A stretch of DNA of 64,000 nt from an uncultured Lentimicrobiaceae bacterium (GTDB taxonomy: Bacteria; Bacteroidota; Bacteroidia; Bacteroidales; WCHB1-69): positions 37,957-101,956 of the forward strand of contig CAZZHH010000003.1 in NCBI GenBank assembly GCA_964653595.1; not shown here. Reading direction: 5' to 3'. Below, a report on this DNA, generated by a model with database tools, continues.

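Follow-up and report, generated by a model that had tools for sequence, protein, structure and literature searches.

Copy number and anatomy of the repeated module

The composite pattern TGAATAAA-N12-TTGTANNAY is a real feature of the window and lies far above chance, with 68 matches at up to two mismatches (64 on the minus strand) versus 1.84 expected and at most 6 in dinucleotide-preserving shuffles. A stricter definition, with spacers of 11-14 nt and no more than one mismatch over both boxes, yields 77 copies in the window (74 minus, 3 plus). Restricted to spacers of 11-13 nt, the count is 76, and first-order Markov simulations scored in this way averaged 0.58 and never exceeded 2. A weight matrix built from the copies scored 72 sites above 11.9, most of them at 30-48, compared with a best shuffle score of 10.9. 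Each of the 78 spans listed in the initial annotation contains a copy, including four degenerate ones (28909, 37993 on the plus strand, 43901 and 57657), but four copies rather than two were found left of 11.5 kb (Table). Seventy copies fall within the 52 kb of the array, and others lie beyond the window.

Alignment of the copies, anchored on the first T of TGAATAAA and with position counts taken from 64 copies, revealed a conserved unit of ~45 nt. An A-tract at -16 to -12 upstream of this -35-like box is followed by T(-10)-n-A(-8)-n-A-A-T-T-T-G/A, and within the box G1, A2, A3 and T4 are present in 64/64 copies. The spacer, 12 nt long in almost all copies (11, 13 and 14 nt also occur), is semi-conserved as r-t-n-C-A-n-t-C-T-C-A/G-A and leads into the -10-like block T-T-G-T-A-n-T-A, in which G22, T23 and A24 are again invariant (64/64). 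The final Y of the originally proposed TTGTAnnAY is weak, with T at this position in only 28/64 copies and a recurring A or C 6-8 nt downstream. From the end of TTGTA to the start codon the median distance is 36 nt (IQR 34-43), and a start codon with a Shine-Dalgarno (SD) core follows 65 of the 73 minus-strand copies, the core being AAAGG in 46 cases and ending 8-11 nt 5' of the ATG. Besides this core, position -3 to the ATG is A in 59/65 array genes, which may be a translation signal or may just reflect common descent of the leaders. The stop codon of the upstream gene, described earlier as often contained in the motif, lies within the box in only 9/73 cases; in a further 6/73 it occupies -10 to -8, ending 7 nt ahead of the box.

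The comparison of intergenic with coding sequence suggested in the initial annotation, run here on 7-mers, recovered the TGAATAA and ATTGTA groups among the most over-represented intergenic words, along with AGAAAGG(T), CCCACGT and TTCGCAT; TTGACA and TATAAT were absent from the strongest excesses. Likewise, a scan of 30-50 kb for canonical sigma-70 promoters returned 75 sites versus 87.6 expected, indicating no enrichment.

Two groups of copies carry additional symmetry. In subfamily A (window 11539-26376), a TACAA 8-9 nt downstream matches the TTGTA of the second block, as in GTTTGTATTACTAATTACAAAC. The resulting palindrome, which the other subfamilies lack, overlaps both the -10 and the presumed start site and might act as an operator or form a 5' hairpin. 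The neighbouring copies 13385-13413, 13938-13966 and 14565-14593 share the spacer TCACATTCCCGT, whose complement AAACGGGAATGTGA lies ~30 nt upstream, giving a 14-15-bp stem that encloses TGAATAAA and resembles the subclass of PeSLs (promoter-bearing intergenic cassettes of T4-like phages) whose stem-loop overlaps the -35. A related 323-kb metagenome scaffold has one such stem cassette where the window has three. A stem-loop across the -35 box is ruled out as a general feature, being present in 3-4 copies only.

Probable promoter function, candidate sigma factor and transcription units

The argument for a promoter is anatomical. The copies keep a constant orientation and distance relative to the translation signals, and two blocks, a spacer varying by ±1 and a TAnnAT-type second block correspond to the design of sigma-70-family promoters. 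On the related scaffold, the motif extends leftward past the window and is found ahead of RNA genes as well: one copy, TGAATAAAACTCCTCTATGACGGTATTAT, ends 13 nt before tRNA-Arg(TCT), which would leave a leader of 6-7 nt if transcription starts ~7 nt after the hexamer, and the next copy begins 6 nt after the 3' end of this tRNA. Other copies there precede terminator-ended non-coding segments and a stretch with tRNA-Phe, and left of the window the second block also appears as GGGTGTATAAT, containing a perfect TATAAT. The position of the upstream A-tract resembles that of an UP element and would point to a polymerase that has bacterial alpha subunits. Given this anatomy, it is scarcely credible that the module is not a promoter, and a start site within the spacer, with TGAATAAA serving as the -10-like element, is very improbable.

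At 15794-19280 of L036 (the related scaffold, left of the window) and on L148, copies precede tRNA-Arg(TCT), a truncated TnpB-like ORF (L036 15940-17034) and ~2 kb of non-coding DNA, which includes segments ending in terminators, fragments resembling tRNA T-arms (for example GGTTCGCAGTTCGATTCTGCC) and tRNA-Phe(GAA). Rfam identified only tRNA in this stretch, and the non-coding segments may be small RNAs of a new type or decayed tRNAs.

Taken as a whole, the module is best explained by a dedicated or modified sigma factor, a reading that we regard as somewhat probable. Some 77 strong promoters serving the standard sigma-A would be expected to approach TTGACA, so that their near-invariance around another sequence suggests another reader. 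Such a reader would be a phage-encoded sigma factor or a protein re-targeting sigma region 4, the latter, proposed here as an option, being the mode of MotA and AsiA in T4. Recognition by the unmodified host sigma factor would accord with the invisibility of a dedicated factor among the 93 proteins scanned, with the presence of anti-restriction-type genes, which are normally required immediately after injection, and with the early promoters of T4, which keep a distinctive signature while being served by the host sigma. However, the box would have to be read as TGAATA at 17-bp spacing or RTGAAT at 18 bp, and in the 18-bp register T is nearly excluded from the first position (1/64 vs 29% background). 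In addition, the TG lies directly against the hexamer instead of one base off, the last -10 position is T in only 44% of copies, and the canonical promoter signal is enriched nowhere, leaving recognition by the unmodified host factor doubtful. A sigma-independent phage polymerase is a distinctly improbable reader, since known promoters of this kind are contiguous and fixed in register (that of AR9 is AAATATATATTAT-N6-G), whereas the spacer of the module is variable and low in information.

A loose resemblance of the blocks to ECF promoters (TGAAAC-N16-CGTA) does not amount to membership, since both the AAC and the CGT that define them are missing and the spacing is one base shorter. None of the SigG/SigF, SigH, SigD, sigma-54, SPO1 gp28 and T4 gp55 consensus sequences fits both blocks together with their spacing. 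The Bacteroidetes promoter type (TTTG ... TAnnTTTG) was rejected because its blocks would stand at a spacing of 23 nt, TAnn is not followed by TTTG, and the genes carry a strong SD.

Rough gene calls place 80 minus-strand genes at 11.5-63.3 kb (median 173 aa, range 52-406 aa), 61 of which have a copy just upstream; those lacking their own copy are mostly second or third in tight pairs or triplets (Table) or lie behind degenerate copies. Of the four plus-strand copies previously assigned to the only plus-strand genes or transcripts, three are good, two of them facing ORFs (24755-25213 and 37635-37913) and one facing non-coding sequence at 63.3 kb; the fourth is degenerate and faces an ORF at ~38100-38561. 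The stretch following the plus-strand copy at 63295 folds no better than shuffled sequence (z = -0.46). Terminator-like sites number 23 in 30-50 kb versus 10.5 expected; an upstream hairpin with at least three G-C pairs and a T-run lies within 130 nt of only 21/73 copies, and in 24 cases the preceding stop codon is inside the box or at most 20 nt from it. The initial annotation's autonomous single-gene units are therefore borne out for about a third of the array and not elsewhere. Outside this insulated third, transcription probably combines local initiation with read-through.

Cassettes as possible units of genome rearrangement, and other intergenic repeats

Within the window, 44 of the 80 array genes have a paralogue, forming 16 families with 22-72% amino-acid identity; the regulatory module is conserved much more strongly than the genes. 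Of the 30 closest pairs of 76-nt modules (76-93% identity), most precede proteins without BLASTP similarity, the remainder preceding proteins with only 24-43% identity. Non-core identity between modules declines with distance along the array, from 0.52 (<1.5 kb) through 0.47 and 0.42 to 0.38 (>15 kb), versus 0.275 for random sequence, which fits tandem origin with local homogenisation. Over window 16354-23003, the related scaffold matches at 99.2% identity; beyond this, it has a different 1.3-kb segment instead of the four-gene stretch at window 13446-16353. The left junction lies inside box 1, which is decayed in the window (AATTTGTGATTGAA) and intact in the scaffold, and identity resumes ~35 nt upstream of copy 13385-13413, at the inverted repeat across that box. 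This one resolved junction pair, together with the similarity statistics, suggests a role of the cassettes in recombination.

The terminator hairpins also form repeat families (GGGGATTCAGAAATGAATCCCC, GACTGGAGTCAGAAATGACTCCAGT and AATTCAGGTTGGTGAAATACCCAACCTGA, often followed by TTATTCGCAT; Table), so it is the whole intergenic module that is repeated and not the promoter alone. Their stems hold ATTCA...TGAAT, half-sites that also border many promoter boxes as ATTCA-N7-TGAAT. A second intergenic repeat, (CCT)GTACCCCACGTAAAAT, occurs at 21 sites between 38593 and 61065 at up to three mismatches, versus 0.44 expected (15 minus, 6 plus). All copies are intergenic and confined to the right half of the array, usually between a terminator hairpin and a promoter copy in either orientation, and two form an inverted pair at 60380-60444. 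The 3' part, (C/T)GTAAAAT, has the GTAnnAT core of the main second block without TGAATAAA upstream; this repeat could thus be a second promoter class that does not need a -35, or a protein-binding site.

At the right boundary of the array, window 63330-63800 is a pyrimidine-rich non-coding block of ~470 nt (~64% C+T, 10% G) with three tandem TTCTTTCCGAA units, and a 29-nt direct repeat is found at 63475-63503 and 63860-63888. A compositionally comparable block lies at L036 20060-20480 on the related scaffold, ~9 kb left of the window; the two blocks share no sequence similarity. Such blocks might be origins, genome ends or packaging regions.

Carrier genome and comparison with known phage systems

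We infer that the carrier is a large virulent phage, because of its gene content (Table), the adjacent tRNAs, the strand-coherent small genes and the size of the scaffold. No structural gene was seen: searches of the 93 window proteins against Pfam, PHROGs and NCBIfam recognised no virion protein, sigma factor, RNA polymerase or integrase, and the window holds no tRNA or Rfam family. The eight-member paralogue family is recovered only as its own members by a profile search of 5.8 billion clusters; its confident AlphaFold model (pLDDT 92, pTM 0.86) matches nothing in the PDB (best E 0.25, TM 0.2) and resembles uncharacterised proteins from uncultured phages only weakly (TM 0.43-0.47). The radical-SAM protein has its best matches in Bacteroides and crAss-like phages, alongside uncultured-phage records of the phage collection (~30% identity), the RNA ligase matches Streptomyces and Nodularia phages, and the truncated TnpB matches Firmicutes plasmids (~33%); together, these hits are too contradictory and too weak for host assignment. 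The AGAAAGG SD pairs with a 16S rRNA ending in CCUUUCU, which implies a host that uses SD pairing and is compatible with Firmicutes and others.

Coordinates of selected features (window positions unless a contig is named)
Feature	Coordinates	Remarks
Promoter copies left of 11.5 kb	338-366; 4128-4156; 5910-5938; 6155-6183	5910-5938 is a perfect match
Tight gene groups (examples)	12848/12564/12013; 22508/22207; 27418/27063; 29305/29066; 36276/35931/35355
BspA-type leucine-rich-repeat genes	1649-2524; 2555-3376; 18974-19537; 36276-37475; 38616-39410; 42614-43195; 51321-51947; 54402-55073; 57815-58615	Nine, scattered in the array; 23-43% identity
Tenth BspA-type gene	L036 14072-15781	569 aa; just outside the window
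Ankyrin-repeat gene	311-1231
Highly acidic repeat protein	L001 13477-15933	813-818 aa; opposite strand; at or just left of the window start
Hexapeptide-repeat proteins		Two in the window
ArdC-like anti-restriction proteins	44708-45673; 58908-59774	Two
Zinc-ribbon proteins	24155-24604; 29893-30378	Two; probably the two Lar-family matches
RNA ligase	40682-41446
Small radical-SAM protein	23540-24097
Eight-member paralogue family	19610-20158; 20225-20779; 20849-21394; 22971-23486; 29305-29856; 32494-33030; 43303-43869; 44071-44601	~180 aa; 15-31% identity
Terminator hairpin repeats (among others)	41520-41545; 44676-44699; 45931-45952; 51291-51312; 58873-58902
Short-read contigs within the array	61043-63444 (L035); 29868-31697 (L042)	2.4 kb; 1.8 kb

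Exact-protein look-ups placed the left part of the window on a 322,919-bp scaffold of ENA ERZ28614953 (MUNK22-1_SAMEA7428322_METAG-scaffold_10), which covers ~10 kb beyond the window's left end, and on several short contigs from a few samples, mostly 2-20 kb long and ending at repeats. The breaks at 1.8-2.4 kb in public short-read assemblies fit breakage at the promoter repeats, so that metagenome assemblies probably under-represent or collapse the array. Neither megablast nor blastn found a DNA match for window segments 1-11500 and 1-8000 among 50,697 phage records, and 17 array proteins, run as one concatenated tblastn query, likewise had none in the phage collection. For the promoter itself, an exact-pattern scan of IMG/VR with TTTGTGAATAAA-N12-TTGTA returned 29 contigs with a single match each, and AATTTGTGAATAAA-N12-TTGTA gave only single matches in a metagenome collection (78 stretches) and GTDB genomes (24 stretches). 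A looser motif occurred at chance level in all fetched loci outside this phage's own contigs, and an exact 41-mer from the right end of the window had no match in IMG/VR.

The architecture is of a known kind, that of early or host-takeover regions of phages in which strong promoters recur; examples are the PeSLs, the SPO1 host-takeover module of 26 genes in 12.4 kb (PMC6873191) and the early promoters of AR9, with 41 copies. What is new is the sequence class, which fits none of the consensus sequences compared, the unusual density of 70 copies in 52 kb, and the setting in a ~0.3-Mb phage lineage without detectable relatives in the collections searched. PeSLs, present in 51-52 copies per T4-like genome (PMC2839356), combine a sigma-70 promoter, a stem-loop, an SD and a start codon with an upstream stop codon located in AT-rich sequence (PMC2839356; PMC4122927); they stand mostly before orphan genes of hyperplastic regions and mediate indels, replacements and mini-circles (PMC2839356; PMC4122927). 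This described behaviour matches the cassette replacement between scaffold and window, but the cassettes lack two defining traits of PeSLs, a match to the sigma-70 consensus and a stem-loop in each copy. The cassettes are therefore classed as working like PeSLs rather than as members of that family.
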